Assembly (NCBI GenBank): GCA_046484975.1
Contig: JAWOHX010000011.1
Coordinates: 3,611 to 67,610, forward strand
Reading direction: 5' to 3'
DNA length: 64,000 nt
DNA from: Clostridia bacterium
Lineage (GTDB): Bacteria; Bacillota; Clostridia; DUPQ01
In this document: positions 2,673 to 55,180 of the stretch, piece by piece
Numbering within the stretch: position 1 is the first letter of the stretch
Layout of the letters: each line of letters begins with the position of its first letter
Translations under genes and position numbers: made by a program
Notes under the pieces: generated by a model
The model's input: only the letters and a program-made list of their open reading frames with translations
Databases searched by the model: none
What the model was told of the DNA's origin: nothing

Positions 2673-2706
2673 AACAATTGACAGGGAGAGGCTGATAATA
2701 TATAAT
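2667..2706 (+). promoter_or_regulatory. sigma-A promoter (TTGACA-17-TATAAT) overlapped by a half-Rex-box-like TTGTGAAacaaTTGACA
   Basis: TTGACA at 2678-2683 and TATAAT at 2701-2706 with a 17-nt spacer. TTGTGAA, the left half-site of the Rex operator consensus TTGTGAA-N6-TTCACAA, sits immediately upstream and overlaps the -35. Confidence 0.45.
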
Positions 2707-2740
2707 TTTTTTGCCTGAGAACATACCAACGGGGGGCTTG

Positions 2741-3391
2741 ATGACTGAGAACAAGAGAATATCCGATGCCGTTATAAAAAGACTGCCAAGATATTACAGA
2801 TATCTTACAGAGCTGAAACAAGGCCATTTGACAAGGATCTCTTCCAAGGAACTCAGCGAGAAGATGTCTCTGACCGCTTCCCAGATACGCCAGGACCTGA
2901 GCTGCTTCGGGGGGTTCGGACAACAGGGATACGGCTACAACATCGACCATCTCCATGAGGAGATCGGCAAGATCCTCGGGGTGGACCAGGGATTCGCCAT
3001 GATCGTCGTCGGGGCGGGCAACATGGGTCAAGCCCTTGCCAATTACCCGAATTTCAACAAAAGGGGATTCCGGGTCATTGGCATCTTCGACATCAATCCC
3101 AAGCTCATCGGCACCGGAATCAAAGGTGTTGAGGTCATGCATGTGGATGTCATGGAAGAGTTCATCAGAAATCACCATGTCGACATTGCAGTCCTGACCC
3201 TGCCCAGCGCTGAGACCAGGATGTACGCGGAGAAGATGATCCGCTGGGGCATCAAGGGACTATGGAATTATTCTGCCATGGATCTTCAGGTGAATCCCGA
3301 AAAGACCATCGTGGAGAATGTGCATCTCAGTGACAGCCTGATGGTACTGGGGTATAAAATACACAATAACAGACTAGGGGGACCACAATGA
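2741..3391 (+). CDS. rex: redox-sensing transcriptional repressor Rex
   Basis: N-terminal winged helix (KRLPRYYRYL; IRQDLSCFGGFGQQGYGYNIDHL) and a Rossmann NADH-binding fold (IVVGAGNMGQALANY). Length and motifs match Rex/YdiH. Start taken at MTENKR. Confidence 0.9.
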   Translation: MTENKRISDAVIKRLPRYYRYLTELKQGHLTRISSKELSEKMSLTASQIRQDLSCFGGFGQQGYGYNIDHLHEEIGKILGVDQGFAMIVVGAGNMGQALANYPNFNKRGFRVIGIFDINPKLIGTGIKGVEVMHVDVMEEFIRNHHVDIAVLTLPSAETRMYAEKMIRWGIKGLWNYSAMDLQVNPEKTIVENVHLSDSLMVLGYKIHNNRLGGPQ

Positions 3392-5457: not shown

Positions 5458-5490
5458 CAAAAACCCCGGTCCCCACCGGGGTTTCCCAAA
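5458..5490. terminator. GC-rich hairpin after the EF-G paralogue (weak U-tract on + strand)
   Basis: AAACCCCGGT-cccc-ACCGGGGTTT inverted repeat followed by TTTCCC. The U-run is better on the minus strand, but no minus-strand gene is present. Confidence 0.35.
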
Positions 5491-5538
5491 AGGGAACAAT
5501 CTGTTGAACGGTTTCGTCAAATATTCAGGAAGAGGTGG

Positions 5539-6411
5539 ATGATGATGAAGAACAAAGCATTTTTAACAATACTTGCCATATTGATGATTTTTGCCGTGGC
5601 AGGCTGTGCCTCACTGGGTGGACAGAAAACCGACTCCAGTGAAGGCGCATACTATCCGGGAACGGCCCCGGCCCCGGATCCCTCCCGCTCCAATGAGTCA
5701 GGGGGATTTTATGAGGATGAAAACCAGAAAACCATCCTGACGGGGAACGTAACGGTGGAAGTGGATGACTTTGATTCCGCCATGGCCGGCATACGCGCAT
5801 CCATTGGTGACAGCGGATACATCCAAAACAGCAACATCTACAAACAACCGGCATATTACAATGATGAAAAAATCATGCTCAGCAGGGCAAGCCTCACCAT
5901 ACGGATCCATAAGTCCCGGTTCGATGCATTCGTCGCAGGCATCCACGATGTTGGCCTGGTCATCAATGAAAGCACCAACGCCGAAGACATCTCCGACATG
6001 TATTATGATACGGAGGCCAGGCACAAGCTCCTGAAGGACGAGAAAGCAAGGCTGGAGCTCTACCTGACGGAAACGAAGGACCCGGACGTGTTCTTCAAGA
6101 CCCAAAGCAGGATCACGGAAGTCATATATGAGATGGAGAGACTGAAAGGGACAATCAACAAGTGGGACGACAGGATCGAATTCTCAACGGTATATGTTGA
6201 GATCAAGGAACAGCATCCAGACGAGACATCGGCCCTTGCCAAACCCATGGGTTTCTTTGAAAGGGTCTGGGAGAACATGAAAAGCTCCGTCGGATTCCTT
6301 GGTGAAGTCTTAATCGTCATGGCGGGACTGATTCCCGTATTCATCGTGATGGGCATGGTGGCTTTGGCGGTCCTTGCCATAGTGCGCCTTTCCAGAAGAA
6401 AAAAGAAATAA
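5539..6411 (+). CDS. DUF4349-like lipoprotein with C-terminal TM anchor
   Basis: Signal peptide with lipobox (LMIFAVAGC ASLGG). Coiled middle region. C-terminal hydrophobic helix plus RRKKK stop-transfer. Confidence 0.65.
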   Translation: MMMKNKAFLTILAILMIFAVAGCASLGGQKTDSSEGAYYPGTAPAPDPSRSNESGGFYEDENQKTILTGNVTVEVDDFDSAMAGIRASIGDSGYIQNSNIYKQPAYYNDEKIMLSRASLTIRIHKSRFDAFVAGIHDVGLVINESTNAEDISDMYYDTEARHKLLKDEKARLELYLTETKDPDVFFKTQSRITEVIYEMERLKGTINKWDDRIEFSTVYVEIKEQHPDETSALAKPMGFFERVWENMKSSVGFLGEVLIVMAGLIPVFIVMGMVALAVLAIVRLSRRKKK

Positions 6412-6985: not shown

Positions 6986-8338
6986 ATGGCAAAAACCAGC
7001 ACCCGATTCATCTGTCAGGAATGTGGATATGAGACCATGAAATGGATGGGAAAATGCCCGTCCTGTTTCCAATGGGACACCTTAAGCCAGACCGTGACTG
7101 AAAAGGCATCGGGTACAACAGAGGTGCGAAAAACAGTCCTCACGGGCCTTTCAGGCCTTTCTTCCGAATCTTCCGACAGGATCGACACGGGCATCGGGGA
7201 GATGAACCGTGTGCTGGGCGGAGGCGTGGTCAGGGGATCCATCATTCTGGTGGGAGGAGATCCCGGCATCGGCAAATCCACCATCCTCCTTCAGCTATGC
7301 AAAAGCGTGGAGGTGGGGACCGAGGTCTTGTATTTTTCCGGGGAGGAAAGCATCAGCCAGATCGGCATGCGGGCGAAGAGACTGGGGGTCGTGAAAGAAA
7401 ACATCCTGTTTGCCTCGGAGACGGATGTGGAAAGCATCTGCGACTGCATGGAGGATAAAAAACCCGAGATCGTTGTCATTGATTCCATCCAGACAGTCTC
7501 CAGCAGCCAGGTGCCCTCGGTCCCGGGCAGTGTGACCCAGATCCGCAATGCCGCCCAGGCTTTTATCCAGACAGCCAAGAAAATCAACACTTCCGTGTTC
7601 CTGGTGGGCCATGTCACCAAGGATGGCACACTGGCCGGCCCCAGGATCCTGGAACACATGGTGGACACGGTCCTGTATTTCGAGGGAGACAGAAGCAGCA
7701 GTTTCAGAATCCTGCGGGCGGTGAAGAACCGGTTCGGATCCACCAACGAGATTGGGGTGTTTGAGATGCTGGAGGAAGGATTGGCTGAGGTGGCCAACCC
7801 CTCCGCGCTGTTCCTGTCCGGGAAAAGCCGCCATGCGGCGGGATCCTGCGTGATACCCGTGATGGAGGGGACCCGGCCCATGCTGTGCGAGATACAGGCC
7901 CTGGTGAGCGCGAGTCCCTTCGGGATGCCCAGGAGGATGTCCACAGGAGTGGACAACAACCGGGTCATCATGCTGGCAGCGGTCCTGGAGAAGATTCTGG
8001 GGCTGAAGCTTGCCAATTGCGATGCCTATGTCAACGCCGCAGGCGGCCTGAAGGTTTCCGAACCGGCTTGTGACCTGGCGGTGATCAGTGCCATCGGATC
8101 CAGTTTCAAGAACCTCCCCGTCGCCGACGACCTGGTGGTCATGGGGGAGGTGGGGTTGACGGGTGAGATCCGGGGGGTCAGCAACATCGACAAGAGGGTC
8201 CGGGAAGCGGAGAAGCTGGGGTACAAGGTTGCCGTCATTCCGTCGGCCAATCTGGCCCAGGCCAGAAAGGCTTCCAAGACCCTTGTCATCCATGCCGTGG
8301 ACCATATAAAAAGAGCATTTGAGGTCCTTTTCCAGTGA
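6986..8338 (+). CDS. radA: DNA repair protein RadA/Sms
   Basis: C4 zinc finger (CQECGYE...CPSC). RecA-like Walker A (GGDPGIGKST). KNRFG motif. C-terminal Lon-like protease domain. Confidence 0.95.
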   Translation: MAKTSTRFICQECGYETMKWMGKCPSCFQWDTLSQTVTEKASGTTEVRKTVLTGLSGLSSESSDRIDTGIGEMNRVLGGGVVRGSIILVGGDPGIGKSTILLQLCKSVEVGTEVLYFSGEESISQIGMRAKRLGVVKENILFASETDVESICDCMEDKKPEIVVIDSIQTVSSSQVPSVPGSVTQIRNAAQAFIQTAKKINTSVFLVGHVTKDGTLAGPRILEHMVDTVLYFEGDRSSSFRILRAVKNRFGSTNEIGVFEMLEEGLAEVANPSALFLSGKSRHAAGSCVIPVMEGTRPMLCEIQALVSASPFGMPRRMSTGVDNNRVIMLAAVLEKILGLKLANCDAYVNAAGGLKVSEPACDLAVISAIGSSFKNLPVADDLVVMGEVGLTGEIRGVSNIDKRVREAEKLGYKVAVIPSANLAQARKASKTLVIHAVDHIKRAFEVLFQ

Positions 8339-22251: not shown

Positions 22252-23748
22252 ATGAACAACAGGAAAATATGGAAAGCACTGCCGATAATCATGGCACTGA
22301 TGTTGGTCACTGTGCTCATCCTGGGATCGACCCGGGTCTTAGGGACCCGGGACAGCGGTAGAATCCAGGCCTATGTGGACCTGGTGACCCAGAACCATTA
22401 TGAATACCTTCCGGTGGAAAACACCTTCCCCAATATGATCAAAGGAGCCTTCGACAACACCGACCGTTATACCTATTTCCAGGAAGTCCGGACATACAGG
22501 AGTGAGATGGAGACCTATATCGATGCCACATACGTTGGAATCGGAATCTCCATGTCCCAGCTGGAGGAAGGGGCCCTGGTGGAGAACGTCTTTATCCATT
22601 CCCCTGCATACCATGCGGGCCTGAAGCCCGGGGACATCCTGGTGGAGGCCAACGGCATTTCCTTCCGGGGAAGGACCCTGGAATACATTGCCTCAAAGGT
22701 CAGGGGACCTGAAGACACGGTGGTGAGAATCGGGATCCTGAGAGACGGGGGGGGAGACATCATCCGCATGGACATCGTCCGAAAAAGCATCACCATTACC
22801 ACGGTGAACATGTTCATGGCCGGTGATACCGCATATGTCAGCATCTCCTCCTTCACCAACAACACCCCTGAGGAATTTGTGAAGGCTTTGTTGAAGATTG
22901 ACGACGCAAAGATCATCAATATTGTCATCGACATCCGTGACAACGGGGGAGGTTCGGTGTACGGGGCCCTGAATGTGGCCAACCAGCTGCTTTCCAATGA
23001 GATCATCACCAAGATCTATTATAAATTCCCTGGCTACCTGAACCTGGCTTACCTGGCCGATGAGAAGGAGATCCCCTACAATGTGGTCCTGCTCATGAAC
23101 AAGAAATCCGCCAGCGCATCGGAGATCCTGGCAGGCGCCCTGAAGGACAACGGACGGGCAGTGCTGATGGGGGAGACCAGCTTCGGAAAAAGCCTTGTAC
23201 AGTCCTCCTATGAGCTCATGACACCGGAGGTGTTCGAGCGGTATGCCAACCTGTACGGGAGCAGGAGCATGCTGGTATTAAACAACATGCTTGCCATGAA
23301 CGGAATCACCCTGCAGGATCATGAAATCCTGGGTGCCGCGAAGATCACCATCGGGGAATATGTCACACCAAAGGAAACCAGGATCAACTTGACCGGCATC
23401 CGCCCCCATATCCTTGTTCCCTATGACGGCCCCACTGTCTTAAGAGCCGGCATCGGCAAAGCCCTTCAGTCCCTGGATGAATACGGTCCGGGGATGCGGG
23501 ATGAAGAGATCAAAAAGGCGAAAGCCATATTGCAGGCCCTGGGCTACGATTCGGGAGCGCCCGGTGACCATTATGACGGGAAAATGGAGGAAGCCGTCAG
23601 GCTTTTCCGAAAAGACGAGGGGCTACCTTCCGGAGAGGGCCTCGACCATGCCGTGCAGGCCGCACTCAACCTGAGGATTTTACCTGCCATCATCGGCACG
23701 GACATCCAGCTGGAAAAAGCATTCCAGCAGGTGGGGGAGGTGGAATGA
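22252..23748 (+). CDS. S41 family C-terminal processing peptidase with PDZ and C-terminal peptidoglycan-binding domain
   Basis: PDZ (GLKPGDILVEANG). Catalytic Ser in KKSASASEILAGAL and Lys in GETSFGKS. C-terminal PG_binding_1 (LGYDSGAPGDHYDGKMEEAVRLFRKDEGL). N-terminal TM anchor. Confidence 0.85.
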   Translation: MNNRKIWKALPIIMALMLVTVLILGSTRVLGTRDSGRIQAYVDLVTQNHYEYLPVENTFPNMIKGAFDNTDRYTYFQEVRTYRSEMETYIDATYVGIGISMSQLEEGALVENVFIHSPAYHAGLKPGDILVEANGISFRGRTLEYIASKVRGPEDTVVRIGILRDGGGDIIRMDIVRKSITITTVNMFMAGDTAYVSISSFTNNTPEEFVKALLKIDDAKIINIVIDIRDNGGGSVYGALNVANQLLSNEIITKIYYKFPGYLNLAYLADEKEIPYNVVLLMNKKSASASEILAGALKDNGRAVLMGETSFGKSLVQSSYELMTPEVFERYANLYGSRSMLVLNNMLAMNGITLQDHEILGAAKITIGEYVTPKETRINLTGIRPHILVPYDGPTVLRAGIGKALQSLDEYGPGMRDEEIKKAKAILQALGYDSGAPGDHYDGKMEEAVRLFRKDEGLPSGEGLDHAVQAALNLRILPAIIGTDIQLEKAFQQVGEVE

Positions 23749-23749
23749 C

Positions 23750-25186
23750 ATGAAAAAAACATGGAAGGTTCTTAGTCTGCTCCTCATCGCCTCGGTCCTC
23801 TTTTCCAGTGTGTTGTCTGCTTCCGTCATCCGTGTGGATGAGGGATACCTCAACCAGCTTTATGATTTCATCAGCAGCATGTACAACGAGGACATCGACC
23901 GGGAATCGGTGCTGGGATCCTCCTTCAACGGGCTCTTCACCGGCACCTCCCCATACTCCTGTTTTGAAAGTGTCTCCCTCCGGGAGGAAGGAACCCACGG
24001 GATCGGCGCAGCCCTGGAGAAGGTGAGACAGGGCTTCATGGTGTCTGCAGTCCACCCGGGATCCAATGCATACAATGCGGGGCTCAAATCCGGCGACATC
24101 ATCTTCAATGCCAACAGGAAAAGCCTCGCCCTCATGAACGTGAAGGATTTCAACCATTATCTGGCCGGTGAGGCAAGGGGCATCCAACTGGACGTCCTGG
24201 ATCCCGGGACAGGAGAGACAAGAACCTTGCTCCTGGACGCCGAGAACATCCAGTACGGGGCGGTGGAGTTTTTCATCCATCAGGAAACAGGCTTCATCCG
24301 CATCCATCATTACGGGCCAAAGACCGGTGAGACAGTGTCCCGGGCGCTTTCAATCTTCTCCGCCAGCCGGGTAAGGAATGTCATCCTTGATCTGCGGGAT
24401 TCCATATCCATGAACGTGGAGGCGGCCGCTGCAGTGGCTGACCTGCTTCTTCCCTACGGAAGGATCGCCCAGGTCAGGGACAAGGCTTTCCACGCTTCCT
24501 TCAAACAAGTCAGCTTCACATTCCATCTGGCTGTCAACGGGAATACCGCGGGGGCGGGGGAAATCATCGCCAGGGCGGTGGAGGACAAAGGCACCGGCAT
24601 GGTTTATGGAAGCCCCACGGCAGGCAACAGCCTGTACGTGAAAACCTATCCGGTGCTTTCCGATGACGCATACATGAAATATGCCGTGCAGGCCGGAAGA
24701 ACGGACATCCCCGGCATCATGAACCATATCCGCCTGAACGGCATCGTGCCGGGGCCTTTCGAGACCACCGGCTACCTGCATATGGTGGAATCCCATGTCA
24801 AGGATGCAAGGGGCCTGGAGATCAGCAGGGCAAACAACATCATCCCTGGTATCGCAACCCGGGAGGATGCCGTGGCCTATCTTGATGCGGACAACAGGAA
24901 CAGGATATGGATCCGGAAGGATTATGAGCCAGGCGAGCTCAGCTATGATGTGTTCCTGGCAAAAAAAATATTGTCGGAGGCAGGATATTTCAAGGGGGAA
25001 CTGAACGTATCCTATGATGCGAATGCGGTTGGGGCGGTGAACGCCTTCAAGAAAGACATGGGACTGGAGCAAAACGGCATCCTGGACAAGGATACCCAGA
25101 AACTGCTGAACTTCACCATGCTTGCCCCGAAGATATTTGCAGACCCTTGCATCCTTGAGATCCTGGAATATATTAAAGGGGAATGA
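23750..25186 (+). CDS. S41-peptidase-like pseudoenzyme (catalytic Ser->Gly, Lys->Asn) with PDZ and peptidoglycan-binding tail
   Basis: Same architecture as the upstream gene: signal peptide, PDZ (GLKSGDIIFNANR) and a C-terminal PG_binding_1. The catalytic positions read GNTAGAGEI (no Ser) and GSPTAGNS (no Lys). Confidence 0.7.
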   Translation: MKKTWKVLSLLLIASVLFSSVLSASVIRVDEGYLNQLYDFISSMYNEDIDRESVLGSSFNGLFTGTSPYSCFESVSLREEGTHGIGAALEKVRQGFMVSAVHPGSNAYNAGLKSGDIIFNANRKSLALMNVKDFNHYLAGEARGIQLDVLDPGTGETRTLLLDAENIQYGAVEFFIHQETGFIRIHHYGPKTGETVSRALSIFSASRVRNVILDLRDSISMNVEAAAAVADLLLPYGRIAQVRDKAFHASFKQVSFTFHLAVNGNTAGAGEIIARAVEDKGTGMVYGSPTAGNSLYVKTYPVLSDDAYMKYAVQAGRTDIPGIMNHIRLNGIVPGPFETTGYLHMVESHVKDARGLEISRANNIIPGIATREDAVAYLDADNRNRIWIRKDYEPGELSYDVFLAKKILSEAGYFKGELNVSYDANAVGAVNAFKKDMGLEQNGILDKDTQKLLNFTMLAPKIFADPCILEILEYIKGE

Positions 25187-29516: not shown

Positions 29517-29534
29517 TGGATGGAGGAACCCGAT

Positions 29535-31028
29535 ATGACAGACCACCCGGAATGCCACAACGAAGAGATGGACCTCAATGAGATCCAGCGGATACGGCTG
29601 GAAAAGTTGCATGTCCTGAAGGAAGAGGGAAAAAATCCGTTTGACATAAAAGCCTATGACCGCCTGCATACGGCGGGACAGGTCCTGGGGGCATATGAGG
29701 CTTGGGAAGGCAGGGAGGTCTCCCTGGCGGGACGGATCATGGCGAAGAGAATCATGGGAAAGGCGAGTTTCTGCCATATTCAGGATCCGACGGGAAAAAT
29801 CCAGGTGTATGTCCGGATTGACGCCATTGGGGAAGAAGCCTACGAGGATTTTAAAAAATACGACATCGGCGACATCATCGGCCTGAAAGGACAGCCCTTC
29901 ACCACGAAGATGGGGGAGAAGTCAATCAAGGCGGAGGAGCTGGTCCTGCTATCAAAATCCCTCAAGCCCCTCCCGGAGAAATGGCACGGCCTGAAGGACA
30001 CAGACCTGAGGTACAGGCACAGGTATCTGGACCTCATCGTGAATCCCGATGTCAAGGAGACCTTCGTCCTTCGTTCCGGGATCATGACCGCCATCCGTGA
30101 ATACATGAACAGCAACGGGTATCTGGAAGTGGAAACCCCTGTGCTGCAGAACCATGCCACCAATTCCAATGCAAGACCCTTCAAAACCCATCATAAAACC
30201 CTTGACCTGAATCTTTTTCTCCGGGTGGAGACGGAACTGGCGCTGAAGAAACTCATCGTGGGGGGATTCGACAGGGTCTACGAGATCGGAAGGATATTCC
30301 GGAACGAGGGGATGAGCTACAAGCATAATCCCGAGTTCACCATGATTGAGATGTATGAGGCATATACCGACTACATGGGGATGATGAAAAGGACGGAGGA
30401 ACTCTTCGCACATGTCGCCTTGCGGACAAAAGGCAGCCTGGAGATCCAATACCAGGGTGAACGGATTGACTTGGCCCCGCCGTGGGAGAGAATGACCATG
30501 GCAGAGGCCGTGAGAAAACATACTGGAGTGGATTTCGACTCTTTTGACAACGACGGGGAAAAAGCGATTGCCGCGGCCAGGGAGAACCATGTCAAGGTGG
30601 AAAAGGGAATGACCTGGGGAGAAGTGCTGAATGAATTCTTTGAGACGAAAGTGGAGGAACACCTGGTCCAGCCCACATTCATCCATGATTACCCCATTGA
30701 GATATCCCCCCTTGCCAAAAGAAAAGGGGACAGGCCACACCTGACGGAACGGTTCGAGTTGTTCATCACCGGACGGGAAATGGGAAATGCTTTCACTGAA
30801 CTGAACGATCCGGTGGACCAGAGGGAACGTCTGGTCCAGCAGGCTGTGAAAAAGCACGGGCAGGACGATTATTCCATTGACGAGGACTTCCTTTATGCCC
30901 TCGAGATTGGAATGCCACCGACGGGAGGGCTGGGCATCGGCATCGACAGGATGGTCATGCTCTTTGCGGATGTTCCATCCATCCGGGATGTCCTGCTGTT
31001 CCCCACCATGCGGCCTTCGGGAAAGTGA
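29535..31028 (+). CDS. lysS: lysine--tRNA ligase (class II)
   Basis: Class II motifs ([20 protein letters not shown]; [14 protein letters not shown]) and an N-terminal OB fold. Start at MTDHPE after GGAGG; the alternative ATG is 15 nt upstream. Confidence 0.95.
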
Positions 31029-31034
31029 GGGGAC

Positions 31035-31832
31035 ATGACAGACGAAGACAGAAAAAAAGCACTTGATGCAATGGGCCTATCGGAAGAGGCTTCCCGGAAG
31101 GACATAGAGTCCAGGTATGTGGCGTTTTTGAAGAGGCGAAAAAACAGGGAAGAACTGGATTATGACGGCATCACGAAGGCATACAACCAGCTCATGGGGA
31201 TTGAAGAGGAACACAGGCCGCAAAGTTGGCTGCGGAAAAAGTACAAGGCATTTATGTTCAACCATTTCGGAATGGCCGTGGTAGTGGTCATTGCCCTTGG
31301 CATCCTGTTTTCCGTGGTTTACCCGGCCCTTACGAAGAAAACCCCTGACCTTTCCATATCCTTCGTGGGAAATTTCAACATCTTCAACCAGGCCCTGGAA
31401 GAAAAGATCCGGCTGGAGATGCCGCATCTGGAATACCTCATAGTGGAGACCATTTATGTCAGTGAGAACAGTGAGAGCGGGGAGTTCGACGAAGCGGGGC
31501 GCATCCAGTTGGCCGGGCTGATCCTGACCGGGGAGACCGGCGTCATCGTGGCCAGTGACACAGCCTACCAGTTCCTGCTGGCCAACGACGCCCTGGCACC
31601 TTTGGAGGAGACCATGGGAGAGGTGCTGGCAGGAATCAACCCTGACAAATATATCTATGCCATAGACCCGGTGGACAGGGAAAAGAAGGTATTCGGGGTC
31701 AATGTGTCAGAAAACGGCCTGTTTTACAAATCAATATCGGGGTCCGTCGCCAGGATCCTTTGCCTGACCAGGGATTTCGCCAATCCGGAGAATGTCCTGG
31801 AGGCCATAAAAATCATATTGGAGGAGGAATGA
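31035..31832 (+). CDS. J-domain-like single-pass membrane protein (paralogue A)
   Basis: N-terminal helical J-like segment (ALDAMGLSEEASRKDIESRYVAFLKRR) lacking HPD, one TM helix (GMAVVVVIALGILFSVVY) and a C-terminal domain of about 170 aa. Confidence 0.5.
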   Translation: MTDEDRKKALDAMGLSEEASRKDIESRYVAFLKRRKNREELDYDGITKAYNQLMGIEEEHRPQSWLRKKYKAFMFNHFGMAVVVVIALGILFSVVYPALTKKTPDLSISFVGNFNIFNQALEEKIRLEMPHLEYLIVETIYVSENSESGEFDEAGRIQLAGLILTGETGVIVASDTAYQFLLANDALAPLEETMGEVLAGINPDKYIYAIDPVDREKKVFGVNVSENGLFYKSISGSVARILCLTRDFANPENVLEAIKIILEEE

Positions 31833-31836
31833 ACCC

Positions 31837-32157
31837 ATGACAGAATACGATATTTCGGTCCAGGGAGACCATGTTCAACTGAAGGGGGAGCTGGATGTCA
31901 GCAATGTGGCTTCCTTCAAAGGGCGTTTGTACGATATTATAGACCAGGCAGAAAAAAACCTGACACTTGACATGGAAGAACTGCGCTATATAGACAGCGC
32001 CGGGCTGGGGATCCTCGTGGGAGCATATAAGAGGCTGAAACAGAAGCAGCTGGGAATGACCATCATCCATGCCATGGACAACATCCGTAAATTGTTCTCC
32101 GTAACGAAACTGGACACCATGATCCCCATCGGGGGAGCAAGGGAGGAAAACATATGA
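31837..32157 (+). CDS. anti-sigma factor antagonist (STAS domain, SpoIIAA/RsbV-like)
   Basis: 106 aa. Conserved phosphorylatable Ser in the DSAGLG motif (YIDSAGLGILVG). Confidence 0.85.
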   Translation: MTEYDISVQGDHVQLKGELDVSNVASFKGRLYDIIDQAEKNLTLDMEELRYIDSAGLGILVGAYKRLKQKQLGMTIIHAMDNIRKLFSVTKLDTMIPIGGAREENI

Positions 32158-32507
32158 TCTGCGACAACAACAAGATTGAAATCGCCATGCCCTGCAAAGC
32201 GGAATACGTCGGGATCCTGAGGTTGGCTTCCGCCGGTGCTGCCAACGAGGCGGGGTTTGACATCGAAACCATCGATGATGTCAAAATACTGGTCTCGGAA
32301 ATTTTCAACAGTGTCTTCAATGCCGGGATTCCTTCCTTTAAGACGGACATCCACATGGAAAAAGGAAAGCTTTTCATTGACTTCGAAGTATGCGAGGGCA
32401 ACGACATCCTGGCAGGAGCCAACGACATGACGCTTCCCATCCTGGAGGCCCTTGCAAGGGAAGTGACCGTCCATGGCAGGAATAAAATATCGCTGGTGAT
32501 CGTATAA
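32154..32507 (+). CDS. short anti-sigma-factor-like protein with degenerate HATPase fold (no G1/G2 boxes)
   Basis: The N-terminal half aligns with the SpoIIAB/RsbW pattern (IAMPCKAEYVGILRLASAGAA...VKILVSEIFNSVFNAG), but the N-box His and the DxGxG ATP-lid motifs are absent. Confidence 0.55.
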   Translation: MICDNNKIEIAMPCKAEYVGILRLASAGAANEAGFDIETIDDVKILVSEIFNSVFNAGIPSFKTDIHMEKGKLFIDFEVCEGNDILAGANDMTLPILEALAREVTVHGRNKISLVIV

Positions 32508-33232
32508 TGGAATCAGAAAACAGAATTTTTCAATTGTACAGGGATACGGGCGACATTGAGGTGCGCAACGAGATTGTCGAGAGATATTATTACCTCGCTG
32601 AGACCCTGGCGAAAAAATTCAGGAACAGGGGCGTGGAATATGACGACCTCATACAGATCGGGTCCCTTGCGCTGATCAAAGCGGCGGAGCGATTCGACCA
32701 TGGGAAAGGCATCAAGTTCATCACCTTTGCCACCCCCACCATCATCGGTGAAATTAAAAAATATTTCAGGGACAAGGCTTCGTCCGTCCGGATGCCCAGG
32801 AAATACTACGAGGCCTATCCCCTGGTCAAGAACGCCCTGGACACATTGATTCATGAACAGGGGCAGTACCCCACTGCGGATGAAATCGCCGGCGTGACCC
32901 ATCTGAAGGCTGAGGAAGTGCTTGAAATATTGGAAATGGCAAAAAGCGGGAGCATCCTTTCCCTGGACGAGGAATATGAAGAGGAAGGGCTCACCCGGAT
33001 GGACAGCCTGAGCCAGACGGAGATGGGGTTTGAGCAGATCGAGAACATTGAGGTCTACAGGATGGCACTGGACATGCTGGAAGAGGAGGAACGGGAAATC
33101 ATCCTCATGCGGCTTGAAAAAGGGTTCACCCAGAAAAAGATTGCCGAGGTGACGGGGTATTCCCAGATGTACATCTCCCGGCTGGAGAAGAAAATCTACA
33201 GGAAACTGAAAGGATTGATCCAGACAGAATGA
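32507..33232 (+). CDS. RNA polymerase sigma factor, sigma-70 group 3 (SigB/F/G-like)
   Basis: Region 2 (DLIQIGSLALIKAAERFDHGKGIKFITFATPTIIGEIKKYFRD) and region 4 HTH (TQKKIAEVTGYSQMYISRLEKK). Confidence 0.9.
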   Translation: MESENRIFQLYRDTGDIEVRNEIVERYYYLAETLAKKFRNRGVEYDDLIQIGSLALIKAAERFDHGKGIKFITFATPTIIGEIKKYFRDKASSVRMPRKYYEAYPLVKNALDTLIHEQGQYPTADEIAGVTHLKAEEVLEILEMAKSGSILSLDEEYEEEGLTRMDSLSQTEMGFEQIENIEVYRMALDMLEEEEREIILMRLEKGFTQKKIAEVTGYSQMYISRLEKKIYRKLKGLIQTE

Positions 33233-33642
33233 TTGAAGAAAAGGACTATTCATTCCCTTCGGACACAAGCAGGATCCCCTCCTACGTGCAAGACATCCTG
33301 ATCGACTTGGGCAAGCATTCCCTCTGGTTCACGGGAGAAGCATTGTACAATGTCCGTGTCGTCCTCAGCGAGCTCATCGCCAACGCGGTGATCCACGGCA
33401 ACAGGAACAATCCGAGGAAGACTGTGGACATCCATATGGCTCTCGGGGAAAGGCGTCTGGAATTCCATGTCTTTGACAAGGGAAAAGGCTTTGAAATGAA
33501 AAAAATACCAAGGCAGAGACTCACCCGTGAAAGCTGCAGGGGCATCCTGATATGCACGAACATGTGCGACAACCTGGAGACTTGTTTCACCAGGGGGAAA
33601 GGCCATACCGTGTCCGTCATTTTTGAAAAGAAAAAGGATTGA
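33229..33642 (+). CDS. anti-sigma factor serine kinase (HATPase_c, SpoIIAB/RsbW-like)
   Basis: N-box VLSELIANAVIHG and G1 box VFDKGKGF. 137 aa. The ATGA overlaps the sigma gene stop. Confidence 0.8.
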   Translation: MIEEKDYSFPSDTSRIPSYVQDILIDLGKHSLWFTGEALYNVRVVLSELIANAVIHGNRNNPRKTVDIHMALGERRLEFHVFDKGKGFEMKKIPRQRLTRESCRGILICTNMCDNLETCFTRGKGHTVSVIFEKKKD

Positions 33643-35881: not shown

Positions 35882-36053
35882 CGGGAACATATTGGTTATA
35901 ATGCATAAAGTAGATATGCCATAGACAGCAGGAGCTTTAAAAAGCGTAACGACATCCGTCTTCCTGCCGAGGTGAGATTTCCTTTTGAAGGATGATATCC
36001 TCGTATGTCTGTGTATATACGGGGATTTTTATATAGTAAGGAGGTGTGGAAAA
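35882..36053 (+). promoter_or_regulatory. rplJ 5' leader (candidate L10(L12)4 autoregulatory leader)
   Basis: Untranslated 170-nt structured spacer between rplA and rplJ, at the position of the conserved L10 leader in Firmicutes. Ends in AGGAGG and the GTG start. Confidence 0.4.
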
Positions 36054-50898: not shown

Positions 50899-52080
50899 AT
50901 GCAAAAAATCACTGAAAACATTCTCTGGACGGGAATCAAGGACTGGGACTTAAGGCATTTTCATGGGCAGGAGTTATCCACACAAAGGGGAACCACCTAC
51001 AATGCATATATCATCCTGGACAAGAAAAACGTTCTGGTGGATACGGTCTGGCCTCCCCATGCACTGCCTTTCATGGATGAAATCCGGGCATTCGGCGTCG
51101 AAAACATCGATGCCATCATCATCAACCACATGGAGCCGGACCATGGCGGAACCCTGGGAATGATCATGGACATCAAACCGGACATCCCCATCTACTGCAC
51201 TCAGAAAGGGAAAGAGATCATTACGTCCTACTTCCGAAAAGACTGGAATTTTGTCACCGTTAAGACAGGCGACACCCTGGATATCGGTGAAAATACCCTG
51301 ACCTTCGTAGAAATGAAAATGATTCACTGGCCAGACAGCATGATGGTGTATGCGGACAAGGAGAAAGTCCTTTTTTCCAATGACGCCTTCGGACAGCATT
51401 ACTGCACGAAGTCCCTCTTCAATGACGAGGTGGACAATCATGAACTTTACCAGGAGGCAATCAAGTATTATGCCAATATCCTGACCCCGTTTGCCTCCTT
51501 GATCAAAAGCAAGGTTCTTGAGATCAACAAGCTGGGTCTTGATGTGAAGATCATCGCCCCCAGCCATGGGGTCCTGTGGAGGGAGAATCCTTTCCAGATC
51601 GTGGAAAAATATCTGGAATGGTCGGATTCCTACCAGGAGGATTTCGTTGTGGTCATCTATGACACCATGTACCAGTCCACCAAAAAAATGGCTGAAGGCA
51701 TCGAGAAAGGACTGCGGGGAAAAGGGGTCCTGGTGAAACTCTACAATGCAGCAGTGACAGACCCCTCTTATCTGCTCACAGAGATTTTCAAATCCAAGGG
51801 GATGGCAGTCGGCAGCTGCACCGTGAACAACGGGGCCATGGCTTCCATCCATACACTGGTTCACGAGATCAGGTCCCATAAATTCAAAGACAAGCCTTTT
51901 CTTGCATTCGGAAGCCACGGATGGAGCGGGGAAGCTGCAAGGGACATCCACGAAGGACTGTTGGCGGCCAAACTGAGTCCTGTGGCTAATCCCGTGACGG
52001 CAAAGTACAATCCGGGAGAGGATGTCCTGGAGGCATGCGAAAAAGCGGGAGCCATGCTGGCGGATATTCTTAAGATATAG
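50899..52080 (+). CDS. flavodiiron protein (metallo-beta-lactamase-like + flavodoxin domains; FprA/NorV-type without rubredoxin)
   Basis: Di-iron ligand motif HMEPDHGG and a flavodoxin-like C-terminal domain (VVIYDTMYQSTKKMAEGI). Confidence 0.85.
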   Translation: MQKITENILWTGIKDWDLRHFHGQELSTQRGTTYNAYIILDKKNVLVDTVWPPHALPFMDEIRAFGVENIDAIIINHMEPDHGGTLGMIMDIKPDIPIYCTQKGKEIITSYFRKDWNFVTVKTGDTLDIGENTLTFVEMKMIHWPDSMMVYADKEKVLFSNDAFGQHYCTKSLFNDEVDNHELYQEAIKYYANILTPFASLIKSKVLEINKLGLDVKIIAPSHGVLWRENPFQIVEKYLEWSDSYQEDFVVVIYDTMYQSTKKMAEGIEKGLRGKGVLVKLYNAAVTDPSYLLTEIFKSKGMAVGSCTVNNGAMASIHTLVHEIRSHKFKDKPFLAFGSHGWSGEAARDIHEGLLAAKLSPVANPVTAKYNPGEDVLEACEKAGAMLADILKI

Positions 52081-52170: not shown

Positions 52171-52995
52171 TTGATGATGTCAGAAATGATGACCAGGGAA
52201 AAAGCTTATGAAATCCTGGGGTTGCCGCAGGATGCCCCTGAGCAGGATATCAAGATCAAATACGAGAATTTCATGAGGCGGCATAGATATGATGAGACCA
52301 TTGATGTGGATCTCCTGACACAAGCCCATGACACCCTGATGGGATATGACATGCACAGCAAGGACAAGGACCCTGCATATGCCCAGAAAGGCCTCAACAA
52401 AAAGAAAGTGGATAATTTCTTCTACCACCATAAGAGGAATCTCCTCTACGGAGCAGTCATCCTCATCATTCTTGTAGCCTTGTCCTTCTCCTTGTTCAGT
52501 GGAAGGAGGAAGGTGGACTTCGGGGTTGCTTTCATCGGCAATTTGACCATGTCCGACATAACCCGGGTGGAGGAGTATCTTCAGACGGTATACGAGATCA
52601 ACAACATCGGGGTCACCTATGCCTCCTATGCATTGGACCAGGGGGAAGCCTCCGCAGCCAACATCATCCGGCTCATGGGAGTCATCACCGACCCGATGTA
52701 CAACGTCCTCTATATGAACAAGGAGGCCGCGGAATTCCTCGCTACTGAAGAGGGTCTGGTTGATCTGACCCCTTATTTCACCGAGATCGGCATCGTCAGA
52801 CAGGACGAAAGGATACTCTGGGTAACCACCGACACGGGGAAAGTGATTGCGGGTGCCATTTTGGTCGGCAGGGATCTTGAATTACAAGACCTGATCATCG
52901 GGTTCGTCCCGGATTACATCGGCATATCCAAAAGCGACACGGACAAGACAACATCCATCACCTTAATCAGGGGATTATTGGAAAGAAGGCTATAA
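52171..52995 (+). CDS. J-domain-like single-pass membrane protein (paralogue B)
   Basis: KAYEILGLPQDAPEQDIKIKYENFMRRHRYDE (J-like, no HPD), a TM helix (LLYGAVILIILVALSFSLF) and a C-terminal domain co-linear with the 31035..31832 product. Confidence 0.5.
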   Translation: MMMSEMMTREKAYEILGLPQDAPEQDIKIKYENFMRRHRYDETIDVDLLTQAHDTLMGYDMHSKDKDPAYAQKGLNKKKVDNFFYHHKRNLLYGAVILIILVALSFSLFSGRRKVDFGVAFIGNLTMSDITRVEEYLQTVYEINNIGVTYASYALDQGEASAANIIRLMGVITDPMYNVLYMNKEAAEFLATEEGLVDLTPYFTEIGIVRQDERILWVTTDTGKVIAGAILVGRDLELQDLIIGFVPDYIGISKSDTDKTTSITLIRGLLERRL

Positions 52996-53098
52996 ATCCC
53001 ACTTAATATCAATAAATATTAGATATTTCCCTACTGGCATTTTTACGGGATGCTATATAATTGTGTTGCAATCTTTTTATTGAAGGAGTGTACGTCAC

Positions 53099-54058
53099 AT
53101 GGAATATATCAAAGAATTGTCCGATCGGATCAGGGAAAACATTGCCAAGGTCATCATTGGAAAGGATGAGGTCATTGACATCGTGCTGGCCTCCCTTTTC
53201 TCCTCCGGCCATGTCCTTCTGGAGGATGTTCCGGGATTGGGAAAGACGGTGCTGGCAAAAAGCCTCGCCAGGTCCATCGGTTGCGACTTCAAGAGGATCC
53301 AGTTCACTCCTGACCTCCTGCCTGGAGACCTGACTGGTGTAAGCGTCTACAATCAGAGGGAATCCGATTTCATTTTCCGGGAAGGTCCGCTTTTCACCCA
53401 GATTGTCCTTGCCGATGAAATCAACAGGGCCACTCCCAGAACCCAGTCTGCCCTTTTGGAATGCATGGAGGAACACCAGATTACCGTGGAAGGCAAGACC
53501 ATGATCCTTAAAGAACCCTTCTTTGTCATTGCCACCCAGAATCCCCTGGAGACCCAAGGCACCTTCCCTCTTCCCGAGGCCCAGATGGACAGGTTTTTCG
53601 TCAAACTGAGCATCGGTTATCCCTCCCATGGGGAAAGCATCAGCATCCTGGACCGCTTTGAAAAGGACAAACCCCTTGAACGGCTGGAAACTGTGGCAAC
53701 GGCCGAGGAAATTGTCAAGGTGCAGGAAATGATGAACAAGATATTCGTCAGCGACGACATCAAGGAATATATTGTGGACATCACCGAGGCCACCAGGGAG
53801 CATGCACGGCTGATCCTGGGACTTAGCCCGAGGGGCAGCATCTCCCTGATGAAAGCCGCCAGGGCATATGCGGCCATCCGGGGCAGGGATTTCGTGATTC
53901 CCACGGATGTCAAGGCCGTAGGAGTCTGGGTCATGTCCCACCGGGTAATGCTACGGGGTCATGCCATCACTTCCGGAGGAAAAGGGACCGCAGATGTCAT
54001 CAAAGAAATTTTTGACACCGTCAAGGTGCCCACAGAGGACATCGAAGGAGAAAAATAA
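53099..54058 (+). CDS. MoxR-like AAA+ ATPase
   Basis: Walker A (GLGKTVLAKSLARS), Walker B (LADEINRATP) and sensor motifs. 319 aa. Confidence 0.9.
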   Translation: MEYIKELSDRIRENIAKVIIGKDEVIDIVLASLFSSGHVLLEDVPGLGKTVLAKSLARSIGCDFKRIQFTPDLLPGDLTGVSVYNQRESDFIFREGPLFTQIVLADEINRATPRTQSALLECMEEHQITVEGKTMILKEPFFVIATQNPLETQGTFPLPEAQMDRFFVKLSIGYPSHGESISILDRFEKDKPLERLETVATAEEIVKVQEMMNKIFVSDDIKEYIVDITEATREHARLILGLSPRGSISLMKAARAYAAIRGRDFVIPTDVKAVGVWVMSHRVMLRGHAITSGGKGTADVIKEIFDTVKVPTEDIEGEK

Positions 54059-55180
54059 ATGGAACTGATTTTTATTGCAGTTCTGGTTATGACGTTCTTC
54101 CTGATTGAATTGGTGTTCTATAAATTTTTCCTTCTCAAGAACATGGAGTATACCCTTTCCTTCAGCCAAAAGCATGCATTTGAAAACGACGACATGTATG
54201 TGGATGAGGTCATCTACAACAAGAAACCCATCTATATCCCCTGGGTCAAGGCAGACATCCATTCGTCCAAATGGCTGGAATTTGCCAATGCCAGCTCGGT
54301 GATCATCGATGAGAGACGATTCGTCACCAGTGGATTCATGCTCAAGGCTTTCCAGAAGACAACAAGAAGATGGTATATGAAATGCACGAAGAGAGGAGTG
54401 TTTGATATTGACAACGCCACGCTGACCTGCGGGGATCTTCTGGGGCTGGTCACGGAATCCAAGGCTGTCCCTGTGAAGACCCGGTTGACCGTATACCCCG
54501 GCCTGGTGGATCTCAGCGAGACGTTTTTCAGCACCCGGGACATCATGGGGGATGCCATCGTAAAGCGATTCATCATCGATGACCCGTTCATTGTGAAAGG
54601 GACCCGGGAATATATGCCGGGGGATGCCATCAACAGAATCAACTGGAAGGCCACGGCCCGGCATGACAGGCTGATGGTAAAGGAAAACGACTTCACGGCG
54701 AAAATGGGGATCACCGTCCTGATGAACATCCAGTCCGCCGACAATGAGTTCAACATGGTGAAGAACAAGGATGTGGTGGAACTGGCCATCAAGGTCTCGG
54801 CCACCATCCTCAACAGGGGATATTCCACGGGGATGCCGTTGCGCTTCGCCACCAACGGGTGCGTCGTGGATCGAGACGATGAGATGGTTTTCTCCGAGAT
54901 CGGCAACGGGCAGGAACACTATATGGAGCTGCTGACAGTCCTGGCGCAGCTTAAATTGAAAAATGTCAGGGATTTCCCCATATTCGTGAACGCCCAGATG
55001 GAAAATATCCGGAACACCCAGGTCTATATCGTGACCGCATACTACAACGAGGATATTCTCGGCCTGGCCAGGGAGATGCAGAAGTCTTCCAACACCGTCA
55101 AGGTGCTGGTCCTGGACACCTACTCTGATGGAATGCCGGTGTCCGGGGATATCGAAACCTATTTCATGGGCAGGAAATAG
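54059..55180 (+). CDS. DUF58 (vWA-like) protein, MoxR partner
   Basis: N-terminal TM helix and the DUF58 core (REYMPGDAINRINWKATARHDRLMVKE). The ATG is 1 nt after the moxR stop. Confidence 0.85.
   Translation: MELIFIAVLVMTFFLIELVFYKFFLLKNMEYTLSFSQKHAFENDDMYVDEVIYNKKPIYIPWVKADIHSSKWLEFANASSVIIDERRFVTSGFMLKAFQKTTRRWYMKCTKRGVFDIDNATLTCGDLLGLVTESKAVPVKTRLTVYPGLVDLSETFFSTRDIMGDAIVKRFIIDDPFIVKGTREYMPGDAINRINWKATARHDRLMVKENDFTAKMGITVLMNIQSADNEFNMVKNKDVVELAIKVSATILNRGYSTGMPLRFATNGCVVDRDDEMVFSEIGNGQEHYMELLTVLAQLKLKNVRDFPIFVNAQMENIRNTQVYIVTAYYNEDILGLAREMQKSSNTVKVLVLDTYSDGMPVSGDIETYFMGRK

Follow-up and report, generated by a model that had tools for sequence, protein, structure and literature searches.

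The window analysed here, a stretch of 64,000 nucleotides (64 kb) from a Clostridia bacterium, contains two genes, which we designate A and B, whose products are both labelled "hypothetical protein" at NCBI (R6W96_00695, identical to A, and R6W96_00800, B). Neither product reaches any Pfam or NCBIfam cut-off. What these two proteins are, how they are related to each other, and what they might do beside the genes that surround them are the questions raised by this locus. The earlier note on this DNA, made from the sequence alone, had described unannotated, diverged paralogues, each with an N-terminal J-like domain lacking the HPD tripeptide, one transmembrane (TM) helix, and a C-terminal domain with common motifs; it had placed A behind lysS, and B between a flavodiiron protein gene and MoxR/DUF58 genes. 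These descriptions were borne out (Table 1).

Table 1. Features of the A and B loci, with positions given in the window.
Feature	Position	Strand	Remarks
lysS, class II LysRS	29520..31028	+	ends 6 nt before A
Paralogue A, 265 aa	31035..31832	+	J-like domain, TM helix, and single SBP-like lobe; family HMM 207 bits
A, HPD-less J-like domain, aa 1–55	31035..31199	+	predicted cytosolic; helices 3–12, 21–36, 43–54
A, TM core, aa 78–96	31266..31322	+	within one long helix, aa 65–100
A, alpha/beta domain, aa 104–265	31344..31829	+	predicted extracytoplasmic; corresponds to one class-II solute-binding protein lobe
STAS anti-sigma-factor antagonist	31837..32157	+	starts 4 nt past A stop; DSAGLG with phosphorylatable Ser
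Short RsbW-like protein, 117 aa	32154..32507	+	matches only N-terminal half of RsbW
SigB/SigF/SigG-family sigma factor	32507..33232	+	below equivalog cut-offs for SigB and SigF
Second anti-sigma serine kinase, 137 aa	33229..33642	+	HATPase_c_2, SpoIIAB-like; N-box and G1 box present
Flavodiiron protein	50899..52080	+	directly upstream of B
Paralogue B, 274 aa from TTG	52171..52995	+	three-part architecture as in A; family HMM 204 bits
B, J-like domain, aa 8–58	52192..52344	+	Pfam DnaJ E = 0.006 over residues 12–38
B, TM core, aa 91–109	52441..52497	+	
B, single SBP-like lobe, aa 115–274	52513..52992	+	predicted extracytoplasmic
MoxR AAA+ ATPase (AAA_3)	53099..54058	+	downstream of B; position kept in 9/9 contigs with downstream sequence
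DUF58 protein	54059..55180	+	N-terminal TM helix
Polytopic membrane protein P487	55128..56591	+	at least 7 TM segments; weak C-terminal DUF4129-like match
Lon protease	56694..59132	+	closes the conserved B-MoxR-DUF58-membrane protein-Lon block

Two paralogues and their family

BLASTP with composition adjustment aligned 211 residues of A and B (E = 1e-16, 48% positives), and the motifs of the shared C-terminal domain (approximately 160 aa) paired up in this alignment as ISFVGN/VAFIGN and LAPLEE/LVDLTP, as in the earlier note. A single family hidden Markov model (HMM) gave both proteins full-length scores of more than 200 bits and found no third copy in the 64-kb window. The AlphaFold2 (AF2) models of A (pLDDT 93.2) and B (pLDDT 92.1) agree in the order of their secondary-structure elements and in their fold matches. 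The notion that the two belong to separate families and resemble each other by composition or chance has nothing in its favour but the 27% identity; it has practically no probability left and is already refuted by these results. B is listed from TTG 52171, versus ATG 52174 in the NCBI model (273 aa), and a GGAG site precedes this ATG. No RNA element was found near either gene in Rfam, and PADLOC made no defence-system assignment for B or the MoxR, DUF58, and P487 proteins.

An exhaustive HMMER profile search (E ≤ 1e-3) yielded 465 clusters at 50% identity, with mostly full-length matches of 265–300 aa. The family, which has no Pfam or NCBIfam model, was visible only by this search; word-indexed homologue searches returned just 1, 3, and 4 matches. 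Residue, TM, and HPD counts given below were taken over 101 members. Further loci came from scanning genome contigs for DNA that could encode AYNLLMGY, written as a degenerate pattern. Family members occurred in 21 of the 58 stretches that carried the pattern (20 identified by HMM, plus the frameshifted L005); the remaining stretches matched it by chance, being from unrelated phyla or in a different frame. A and B are members of separate clades, each with its own conserved neighbourhood, and gene context tracks phylogeny. They are old paralogues and not a recent local duplication. The duplication that had appeared unusual for one region is thus a pair of representatives of two deep clades within a sizeable Clostridia family.

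One hydrophobic segment is present in each of A and B, and a single TM segment in 98 of the 101 members. Lys and Arg are richer on the N-terminal flank of this segment in 88 of 101, which indicates an N-in/C-out topology. A and B are therefore predicted to be type-II single-pass membrane proteins, with the C-terminal domain, whose side of the membrane the earlier note had left to topology prediction, outside. They have no signal peptide or lipoprotein anchor; a soluble J-like N-terminus is followed by the internal TM helix, and a basic/aromatic juxtamembrane motif (KKxxNFxYYYKxH) is conserved in most of the family. SLATT_5 and PycTM matches of A (E about 0.05–0.1) were discarded as TM-helix noise.

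A degenerate J domain inside and a predicted half solute-binding protein outside

The AF2 models of A and B contain the three J-domain helices with pLDDT above 90. Taken alone, A had no Pfam DnaJ match and that of B (E = 0.006) was also sub-threshold. At the level of the family profile, the J-domain fold and sequence signature (helices I–III, with the conserved cores Y..LG....A....I..AY and I..AY..L) were found: 70 of the 101 members matched Pfam DnaJ at E ≤ 0.01 (best E = 2e-9), and the profile matched solved DnaJ J domains among PDB sequences (E = 1.8e-12, profile positions 3–67). The core residues A49, Y50, and Y28 are kept in 100, 96, and 93 members, respectively, and helix II keeps many Lys and Arg residues. 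The HPD tripeptide between helices II and III was present in none of the 101 members, and neither its His nor its Pro was kept in any. The equivalent columns have Lys or Arg first in 83 members, a variable second residue, and Asp third in 16; A has K36-N37-R38 and B has R39-Y40-D41 at this position. In place of HPD there is a loop whose length ranges across the family from 17 to 39 residues. The N-terminus of the family is a true but degenerate J domain, in which the fold is kept and HPD is lost. An identity as "cold adaptation protein ActJ" (NCBIfam) was rejected: the match reflected J-domain similarity alone (22 bits on a 93-position model, against a cut-off of 150), and the ActJ of the literature is an unrelated response regulator.

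Loss of HPD in canonical J proteins abolishes stimulation of the Hsp70 ATPase. The Hsp70-independent scaffold role to which the earlier note had pointed may accordingly be called a reasonable reading of the HPD loss seen in the sequences. Some contact of the domain with DnaK may persist, since helix II is still basic. The fold is homologous to that of canonical J-domain proteins, including the membrane-anchored DjlA, DjlB, and DjlC, but HPD, which defines those proteins, is lacking in 101 of 101 family members, and none of them has an ectodomain resembling a solute-binding protein (SBP). In DjlA, moreover, the TM helix is N-terminal and the J domain C-terminal. Pam16/Tim16 is a degenerate, HPD-less J domain that acts by protein–protein contact at the membrane; unlike the A/B family, it is mitochondrial, pairs with the true J protein Pam18, and has no ectodomain, and there is no sign of close kinship.

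The C-terminal domain, which the earlier note had correctly taken as shared, had gone unrecognised there as to its fold. Its high-confidence models match one lobe of a class-II SBP: the predicted structures show an alpha/beta lobe of approximately 160 aa with class-II SBP topology, and the fold matches cover 110–135 residues of SBPs that are 300–450 residues long. The models of both proteins contain one beta-sheet domain, with neither a hinge nor a second lobe. Sequence comparison was less telling: (i) Pfam SBP_bac_1 did not match A or B and gave weak matches in 8 of 101 relatives (best E = 4.7e-4); (ii) hhalign of the family with Escherichia coli MalE aligned the expected motif at E = 0.065 and a probability below 1%; and (iii) the family profile found J domains but no SBP among PDB sequences. 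Because the comparison with MalE was non-significant, the assignment rests on structure, and the C-terminal domain is, as modelled, a single lobe of a class-II (MalE/FbpA-type) SBP.

Three further differences separate the family from the class-II SBPs (cluster D, SBP_bac_1/MalE/FbpA) besides the absence of hinge and second lobe: the lobe is held by a TM helix and not by a signal peptide or lipid anchor, sequence similarity reaches none of the curated thresholds, and no ABC importer genes are adjacent. A Pfam check of 16.9–33.6 kb and 50.9–56.6 kb of the window found no such genes, and none adjoined A, B, or their sigma-linked or MoxR-linked relatives. The most conserved positions of the family, G112, K158, D169, D174, and Y220-G221, are located in the lobe; among the 89 members that belong to neither the A nor the B clade, approximately 85 keep them. 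A and B both lack the signature acidic pair (D169/D174), a loss that may mark a shift of their lobes from ligand binding to protein binding.

Conserved neighbourhoods of the two clades

The ribosome-binding site of A overlaps the lysS stop codon, and no promoter-like or terminator-like site was found in the window between lysS and the end of the gene cluster that follows A. The earlier note had taken lysS as the informative neighbour of A; the cluster immediately downstream is tighter and more telling. Its genes form a partner-switching sigma module, with a STAS antagonist (TIGR00377, 71.8 bits, above the cut-off), a kinase of the RsbW/SpoIIAB type, and a sigma factor of group 3 (SigBFG subfamily, 214.6 bits, slightly short of the 234-bit cut-off). 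The short RsbW-like protein has degenerate G1/G2 ATP-binding boxes. No PP2C input phosphatase was found within approximately 14 kb upstream of A or inside the cluster, and we know of no A-like component in partner-switching sigma modules.

The order greA-lysS-J-like-STAS-short RsbW-like-SigB/F/G-family sigma-kinase was found, as far as the contigs reach, at 18 further distinct loci (L002, L003, and 16 that the genome scan supplied; L008 is on the same contig as L003). The gap between the J-like gene and the next gene ranges from 2 to 248 nt and is 4 nt in the window. In L002, a class I LysRS gene replaces lysS, with the J-like gene and the sigma cluster still in place. The STAS gene is absent in three of these lineages, L024, L030, and L038, where the J-like and short RsbW-like genes are still tightly packed (12–39 nt); the sigma gene follows in L024 and L030, L038 being read only to the RsbW-like gene. 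L024, the only STAS-less locus read past sigma, is without the second kinase. This synteny is weaker evidence than usual, since the order of this housekeeping region (greA, lysS, rpmG-secE-nusG-rplK) is conserved for other reasons.

The order J-like-MoxR-DUF58-membrane protein-Lon was found, again as far as the contigs reach, in L001, L062–65, L067–69, and L071, and the J-like gene is separated from MoxR by 19–35 nt in 7 of 9 loci. The polytopic membrane protein is conserved in L063–L067 and L071, and a flavodiiron gene is located approximately 2–3 kb upstream of the B-type gene in four related loci. The MoxR proteins of these loci are 69–77% identical, and the lineage that the loci represent is fairly narrow; their common order could be due in part to shallow divergence. 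In the window, a promoter-like site between B and MoxR counts against a functional link between the two. The genes downstream of B resemble operons of the MoxR-DUF58-TgpA/DUF4129 type (Bacillus subtilis YeaC-YeaD-YebA-like; Bacteroides Bat aerotolerance), for which we found no description of a J-like membrane protein as a member in the literature.

A third clade occupied unrelated contexts in all three members sampled, with neither the sigma cluster nor MoxR near, and the B-clade member L072 has no MoxR nearby, so the family has a function for which neither module is needed. One third-clade gene, L077, lies directly downstream of ABC-2 transporter genes. No dnaK, dnaJ, or grpE gene adjoined any sampled family locus.

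Possible roles of A and B

We consider it quite possible, though somewhat short of an even chance, that A and B are transmembrane sensors or adaptors whose J-like domain docks the neighbouring cytosolic module without Hsp70 action. The outside lobe would bind either an envelope partner or a small ligand, perhaps through the pairing of two lobes in a dimer; inside, the J-like domain would not fire Hsp70 and would instead form a docking or regulatory surface for the machine encoded nearby. For A, this machine would be the module of STAS protein, short RsbW-like protein, SigB/F/G-family sigma factor, and kinase, which would thereby gain an input or a tether located at the membrane. For B, the machine would be the membrane-associated system of MoxR AAA+, DUF58, and polytopic proteins, followed by Lon. 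Gene order is what suggests the link of A and B to their modules. No paper was found that joins J domains to partner switching or describes the A/B architecture.

A precedent for such a use of the domain is ARC6, which crosses the membrane once; its J-like domain lacks HPD and, instead of binding Hsp70, regulates partner-protein binding (bioRxiv 10.1101/2024.01.08.574726). ARC6 of chloroplasts and Ftn2 (ZipN; PMC6391411) of cyanobacteria share with A and B a J-like domain without HPD at the N-terminus, in the cytosol or stroma, then a single TM helix and, across the membrane, a C-terminal domain. The likeness is one of described architecture: unlike A and B, these proteins are cyanobacterial or plastid and tether FtsZ for division. 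With approximately 800 aa, ARC6/ZipN is also far larger, by about three-fold, and we know of no SBP likeness in its outer domain.

The clear J-domain homology, the basic helix II, and the Lys or Arg at the first HPD-equivalent position would also suit a membrane arm of the Hsp70 system. The domain would then still touch DnaK, or else join with a true J domain in the way established for Pam16 and Pam18; chaperone activity for secreted or membrane proteins would thereby be tethered or tuned at the membrane, and the lobe would hold the client. The neighbourhoods would then be incidental, as the clade without a conserved neighbourhood and the position of the A-type block inside a generally order-conserved housekeeping region might suggest. 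We regard this as unlikely, given the complete loss of HPD (even its Asp is seen in few members), the variable loop in its place, and the lack of dnaK, dnaJ, or grpE beside any sampled locus; moreover, it leaves the tight clade-specific synteny unexplained, including the J-like-short RsbW-like-sigma unit that is kept after loss of STAS. A purely extracytoplasmic job, with the tethered half-SBP as a ligand scavenger, transporter accessory, or envelope factor and the J-like domain as a stable cytosolic cap or oligomerisation module, would fit the concentration of the most conserved positions in the lobe, its fold match to transport SBPs, and the ABC-2 genes upstream of L077. Set against it are the lack of importer genes beside A, B, and their linked relatives, the inability of a single lobe to close on a ligand as an SBP does, and the retention of A and B after loss of the acidic pair; the J-like core is as conserved as the lobe, which argues against a passive cap, and we give this explanation a low probability.

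A narrower version of the sensor or adaptor explanation makes A a membrane anti-sigma-type anchor, whose N-terminal helical domain would directly hold either the sigma factor or the short RsbW-like protein at the membrane, B being a neofunctionalised copy. RsgI and RsiV likewise have a small helical domain in the cytosol, joined through a single TM helix to a binding domain outside, and are encoded beside a sigma gene in Clostridia; the persistence of the J-like-short RsbW-like-sigma unit without STAS and, in L024, without the second kinase, as well as the lack of a PP2C gene near A, agree with such an anchor. However, the cytosolic domain of A is a J domain by descent and not a known anti-sigma domain, and no match to zf-HC2, RsgI_N, RskA, or similar domains was found in Pfam/NCBIfam even at E ≤ 10. 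The adjacent sigma factor belongs to the SigB/F/G group and has STAS/RsbW-type regulators of its own, which sets the arrangement apart from an ECF or SigI pair; one or two RsbW-type anti-sigma proteins are already present in the cluster, and family members exist with no sigma gene nearby. This version is therefore rather improbable.

For the sensor or adaptor reading, a point of comparison is Clostridioides difficile, whose sigB operon has no RsbR/S/T/X stressosome homologues and in which the only input characterised so far is the PP2C phosphatase RsbZ, encoded outside the operon (bioRxiv 10.1101/2020.07.16.207829). A pair of open reading frames lying upstream of rsbV reportedly had no role in sigma-B activation there (bioRxiv 10.1101/2020.07.16.207829). 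If cd0008, one of these two (cd0007/cd0008), is a family member, this result bears on the proposed role.

Whatever its function, the family is a case of a bacterial J domain with systematic HPD loss and a kept fold, and of a predicted SBP reduced to one lobe that is joined to a TM anchor; a family model would annotate at least several hundred "hypothetical" proteins. To our knowledge, signal input to SigB-type partner-switching modules in anaerobic Clostridia is poorly understood, and an A-type protein with an outside binding lobe, whose gene immediately precedes such a module at 18 or more further distinct loci, is a testable candidate for an input or tether. We also know of no partners that connect MoxR/DUF58 systems to the cell exterior, for which the B clade is one candidate. 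A bolder and doubtful proposal is that the family comprises unrecognised transmembrane input devices of Clostridia, in which the half-SBP would read an extracellular or envelope cue and the HPD-less J-like domain would relay it by direct contact to a stressosome-less SigB/F/G-type module (A clade) or to a MoxR AAA+/DUF58 system (B clade). If this is true, the family would supply the sensor that is missing from these sigma modules of anaerobes, and with it the first bacterial J-like domain used as a signalling output.

Paralogy and family membership of A and B

The open reading frames A and B were both found on the forward strand where the earlier note had placed them (see table), and their products, annotated as "hypothetical protein" in the source metagenome-assembled genome ("Clostridia bacterium"), reached neither the Pfam nor the NCBIfam cut-offs, in keeping with its remark that an obvious annotation was lacking. 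Pairwise BLASTP aligned the two proteins over 211 residues (E = 1e-16, 27% identity, 48% positives) and paired the motifs singled out in that note with one another. Both proteins also matched a single family HMM end to end with more than 200 bits each. A chance resemblance of A to B was excluded by these results, and the proposed paralogy is confirmed. The one transmembrane helix claimed for each protein corresponds to a single hydrophobic segment (residues 78–96 in A and 91–109 in B). The family HMM revealed no third copy in the window. In the public record, B starts at the ATG at 52174, one codon after the listed TTG; a GGAG site precedes it. The window holds another paralogous pair, two tandem S41 (Ctp-type) peptidase genes (22252..25186), each with PDZ and PG_binding_1 domains.

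Positions and properties of A, B and the products of the sigma cluster
Feature	Position	Strand	Length	Properties
A	31035..31832	+	265 aa	
STAS antagonist	after A			phosphorylatable-serine motif DSAGLG
Short RsbW-like protein	32154..32507		117 aa	RsbW match confined to the N-terminal half; ATP-binding (G) boxes degenerate
Sigma factor, SigB/SigF/SigG subfamily	after short RsbW-like			below SigB and SigF equivalog cut-offs
SpoIIAB-like kinase	33229..33642, after sigma gene		137 aa, complete	N-box and G1 box
B	52171..52995	+	274 aa from TTG	

Word-indexed homologue searches returned hardly any relatives. When 1.84 billion cluster representatives were searched exhaustively with a HMMER profile, 465 family clusters came out at E ≤ 1e-3, of which 173 reached E ≤ 1e-10; the matches were mostly 265–300 aa in length and aligned end to end, and the family is therefore real, moderate in size and unnamed. 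Its hosts are Clostridia/Bacillota isolates and metagenome-assembled genomes (MAGs) labelled Acetivibrionales, Clostridiaceae, Oscillospiraceae and Eubacteriales. Clustering and a neighbour-joining tree of family members grouped A with P0008, P0011, P0018 and P0021 in a small clade, and B with P0003–P0007 and P0009 in a separate one; two larger groups hold the rest.

Domain architecture and membrane topology

The AlphaFold2 models of A and B, which were built from family alignments (pLDDT of 93.2 and 92.1), have an identical order of elements, with three short helices first, then a long helix including the transmembrane segment, and finally an α/β domain. The Pfam DnaJ profile matched 70 of the 101 aligned members at E ≤ 0.01 (best E = 2e-9), and the family profile matched the solved J domains of Thermus thermophilus DnaJ2 and Escherichia coli DnaJ across helices I–III (E = 1.8e-12 to 1e-10); the NCBIfam DnaJ matches, over roughly the first 60 residues, lay far below threshold. 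The structural core is near-invariant, with Y28, A49 and Y50 each retained in 93–100 of the 101 members. The HPD tripeptide between helices II and III was present in none of the 101. At the equivalent columns, the first residue is K/R in 83 members, the second is variable and the third is Asp in only 16; A reads KNR and B reads RYD, and the loop replacing HPD spans 17–39 residues. The N-terminus descends from a J domain but no longer has the defining catalytic motif, and the description of it as J-like and HPD-less holds.

Foldseek comparison with the PDB returned almost exclusively class-II solute-binding proteins (SBPs; E about 1e-3, Foldseek probability 0.99), with alignments of 106–138 columns among the top 20 matches. 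Because only about 110–135 residues of these 300–450-residue SBPs were matched, and the domain itself comprises about 160 aa, the C-terminal domain corresponds to one lobe of a class-II SBP rather than a complete two-lobe clamp. At the sequence level the support is weak: SBP_bac_1 gave weak matches to 8 of 101 members (best E = 4.7e-4), and hhalign placed the family motif g..Dv.I.D...F.....gaF..Ld on a MalE segment without significance. The best-conserved lobe residues are G112, K158, D169, D174 and Y220-G221; with the A and B clades set aside, about 85 of the remaining 89 members keep each of them. The acidic pair is lost in the window copies, being G and S in A and N and N in B, and the YG pair is relaxed to AA in the B clade.

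A single transmembrane segment was predicted in 98 of the 101 members. On its N-terminal side the adjacent 15 residues contain 3.5 K/R on average, versus 1.6 on the C-terminal side, and in 88 of the 101 members the N-terminal flank has the more K/R. This bias, combined with the absence of a signal peptide and the resemblance of the C-terminal domain to SBPs, indicates an N-in/C-out topology for the family. A juxtamembrane motif on the cytosolic side, KKxxNFxYYYKxH, is conserved in most of the family; B retains part of it (KKVDNFFYHHKRN) and A very little.

Gene neighbourhoods of the two clades

Related loci were gathered by exact-protein look-ups, by a degenerate DNA pattern for AYNLLMGY in species-representative genomes, and by scanning metagenome contigs with a B-clade profile; tblastn and the family HMM then served to map the window proteins to the loci. 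As the earlier note had read them, A follows lysS (itself preceded by greA), and B lies between the flavodiiron gene and MoxR/DUF58.

The genome scan gave 16 distinct sigma-linked loci, to which L002 and L003 are added (L003 and L008 are one contig). The order greA–lysS–J-like–STAS–short RsbW-like–SigB/F/G-family sigma–second HATPase_c_2 kinase was found in all sigma-linked loci, as far as the contig reaches. The four genes from STAS to the kinase are complete in 13 distinct related loci and partial in several whose contigs end early. The J-like gene begins 3–468 nt after lysS (6 nt in the window) and is separated by 2–248 nt from its downstream neighbour (4 nt in the window), and no promoter-like or terminator-like site was found in the window between the lysS promoter region and the cluster end. 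In the P0008 locus (L002), the lysS slot (2425..4449) encodes a class I LysRS (tRNA-synt_1f), versus class II in the window, with the J-like gene and sigma cluster unchanged; a desulfoferrodoxin gene (7271..7648) lies after this cluster. In three "Eubacteriales" MAGs (L024, L030 and L038) STAS is absent and the J-like gene is 12–39 nt from the short RsbW-like gene, which is followed by sigma in L024 and L030; L038 was read only to the RsbW-like gene. L024 (3417..5468), the sole STAS-less locus read past sigma, has no second kinase after it. L024 and L030 thus keep a compact unit of the J-like, short RsbW-like and sigma genes, which in L024 are spaced by 12 and 4 nt. The L005 locus (4600..5600), from a long-read MAG of the Acetivibrionales, has short ORFs in place of an intact family gene between lysS and STAS, owing either to assembly frameshift errors or to pseudogene formation.

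The window cluster has two RsbW-type genes, one before and one after the sigma gene, and is a partner-switching module of unusual make-up. In view of its half match and degenerate G boxes, the short RsbW-like protein is probably not a kinase. A PP2C phosphatase was found neither in the cluster nor among the 12 genes upstream of A (16.9–31 kb, all checked). The sole Rfam match in the window is a ribosomal protein L10 leader (35901..36040, RF00557, 73 bits), and no Rfam element lies near A or B.

In the B clade, the order J-like–MoxR–DUF58–polytopic membrane protein–Lon was found in 9 of 9 contigs with downstream sequence, as far as each reaches. The window genes encode MoxR (AAA_3 and lid domain), DUF58 with an N-terminal transmembrane helix, a 487-aa protein (P487) that has at least 7 transmembrane segments and weakly matches DUF4129 at its C-terminus, and Lon; PADLOC assigned no defence system to B, MoxR, DUF58 or P487. 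The P487 ORF overlaps the DUF58 end by 53 nt (55128..55180), which makes a start further downstream probable. The J-like gene lies 19–35 nt from MoxR in 7 of the 9 contigs and 103 nt in the window, where a sigma-70-like promoter match (53034..53061, 10 of 12 positions) suggests that MoxR may have its own promoter as well. A flavodiiron gene lies about 2–3 kb upstream of the B-type gene in four loci and directly upstream in the window. In the B-clade locus L072 (5938..7861), MoxR is absent and a 343-aa protein with an N-terminal transmembrane helix and many WG/KWG-type repeats follows. The L074 contig, which carries a B-type gene at its end, also has a 119-aa ORF (1322..1681) upstream of the flavodiiron gene that consists of the J-like domain and transmembrane segment only; several short matches of 117–134 aa in the representative search are perhaps similar mini-proteins or fragments.

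The third, second-largest group had three sampled members in unrelated contexts. P0083, a scattered-clade member (L077, 3243..6879), has an ABC ATPase gene and two ABC-2 membrane genes immediately upstream and a CheX/CheC-like gene downstream. Family gene context therefore tracks phylogeny, and the window pair represents two old orthologous groups, each with its own clade and neighbourhood, rather than a recent local duplication; the earlier impression of an unusual duplicated family within one 64-kb region does not stand. The finding is real and richer than first described: gene order ties the A clade to a sigma-factor partner switch and the B clade to the MoxR operon.

Candidate roles and related systems

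Literature searches returned no paper on this architecture and none linking J domains with partner switching. The nearest architectural analogue is ARC6/ZipN. In ARC6, a single-pass membrane protein, the J-like domain lacks HPD and regulates partner binding without binding Hsp70 (bioRxiv 10.1101/2024.01.08.574726), and its cyanobacterial relative ZipN tethers FtsZ to the membrane (PMC6391411). From architecture, conservation and clade-specific synteny, we infer, as the leading but tentative reading, that the family may consist of transmembrane sensor/adaptor proteins. The outside lobe would bind a ligand or envelope partner, possibly through a dimer that pairs two lobes, since closure on a ligand takes more than one lobe. 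The J-like domain, without firing Hsp70, would offer a docking or regulatory surface, for which ARC6 is a direct precedent, to the adjacent cytosolic system: the sigma module for A and the MoxR/DUF58 machinery for B. This reading is weakened by the housekeeping region of generally conserved order around the A-type block, by the clade without a conserved neighbourhood, by the fairly narrow lineage of the B-type loci (MoxR 69–77% identical), and by the promoter-like site between B and MoxR.

Among the rival readings, a membrane-localised, DnaK-linked role is unlikely, and a purely extracytoplasmic role is somewhat less likely still, as is an anti-sigma anchor for A, a narrower version of the sensor/adaptor reading. 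In their mode of action the proteins would resemble several known groups without belonging to them. They share the fold of canonical J-domain proteins but lack HPD. They share the lobe fold of SBPs, but not their two lobes, sequence thresholds, secretion signal or ABC context. No anti-sigma domain of the known anti-sigma factors is detectable in the family. In Clostridioides difficile, two possible family members, the ORFs cd0007 and cd0008 upstream of rsbV, reportedly have no role in sigma-B activation (bioRxiv 10.1101/2020.07.16.207829).

Among other pointers, the flavodiiron gene beside B and the desulfoferrodoxin gene in L002 hint at an oxygen or oxidative-stress theme. This unnamed Clostridia family is a catalytically dead J domain fused to a membrane-anchored half-SBP, and, although its function is inferred, it is a further variant of already known kinds rather than a new category.
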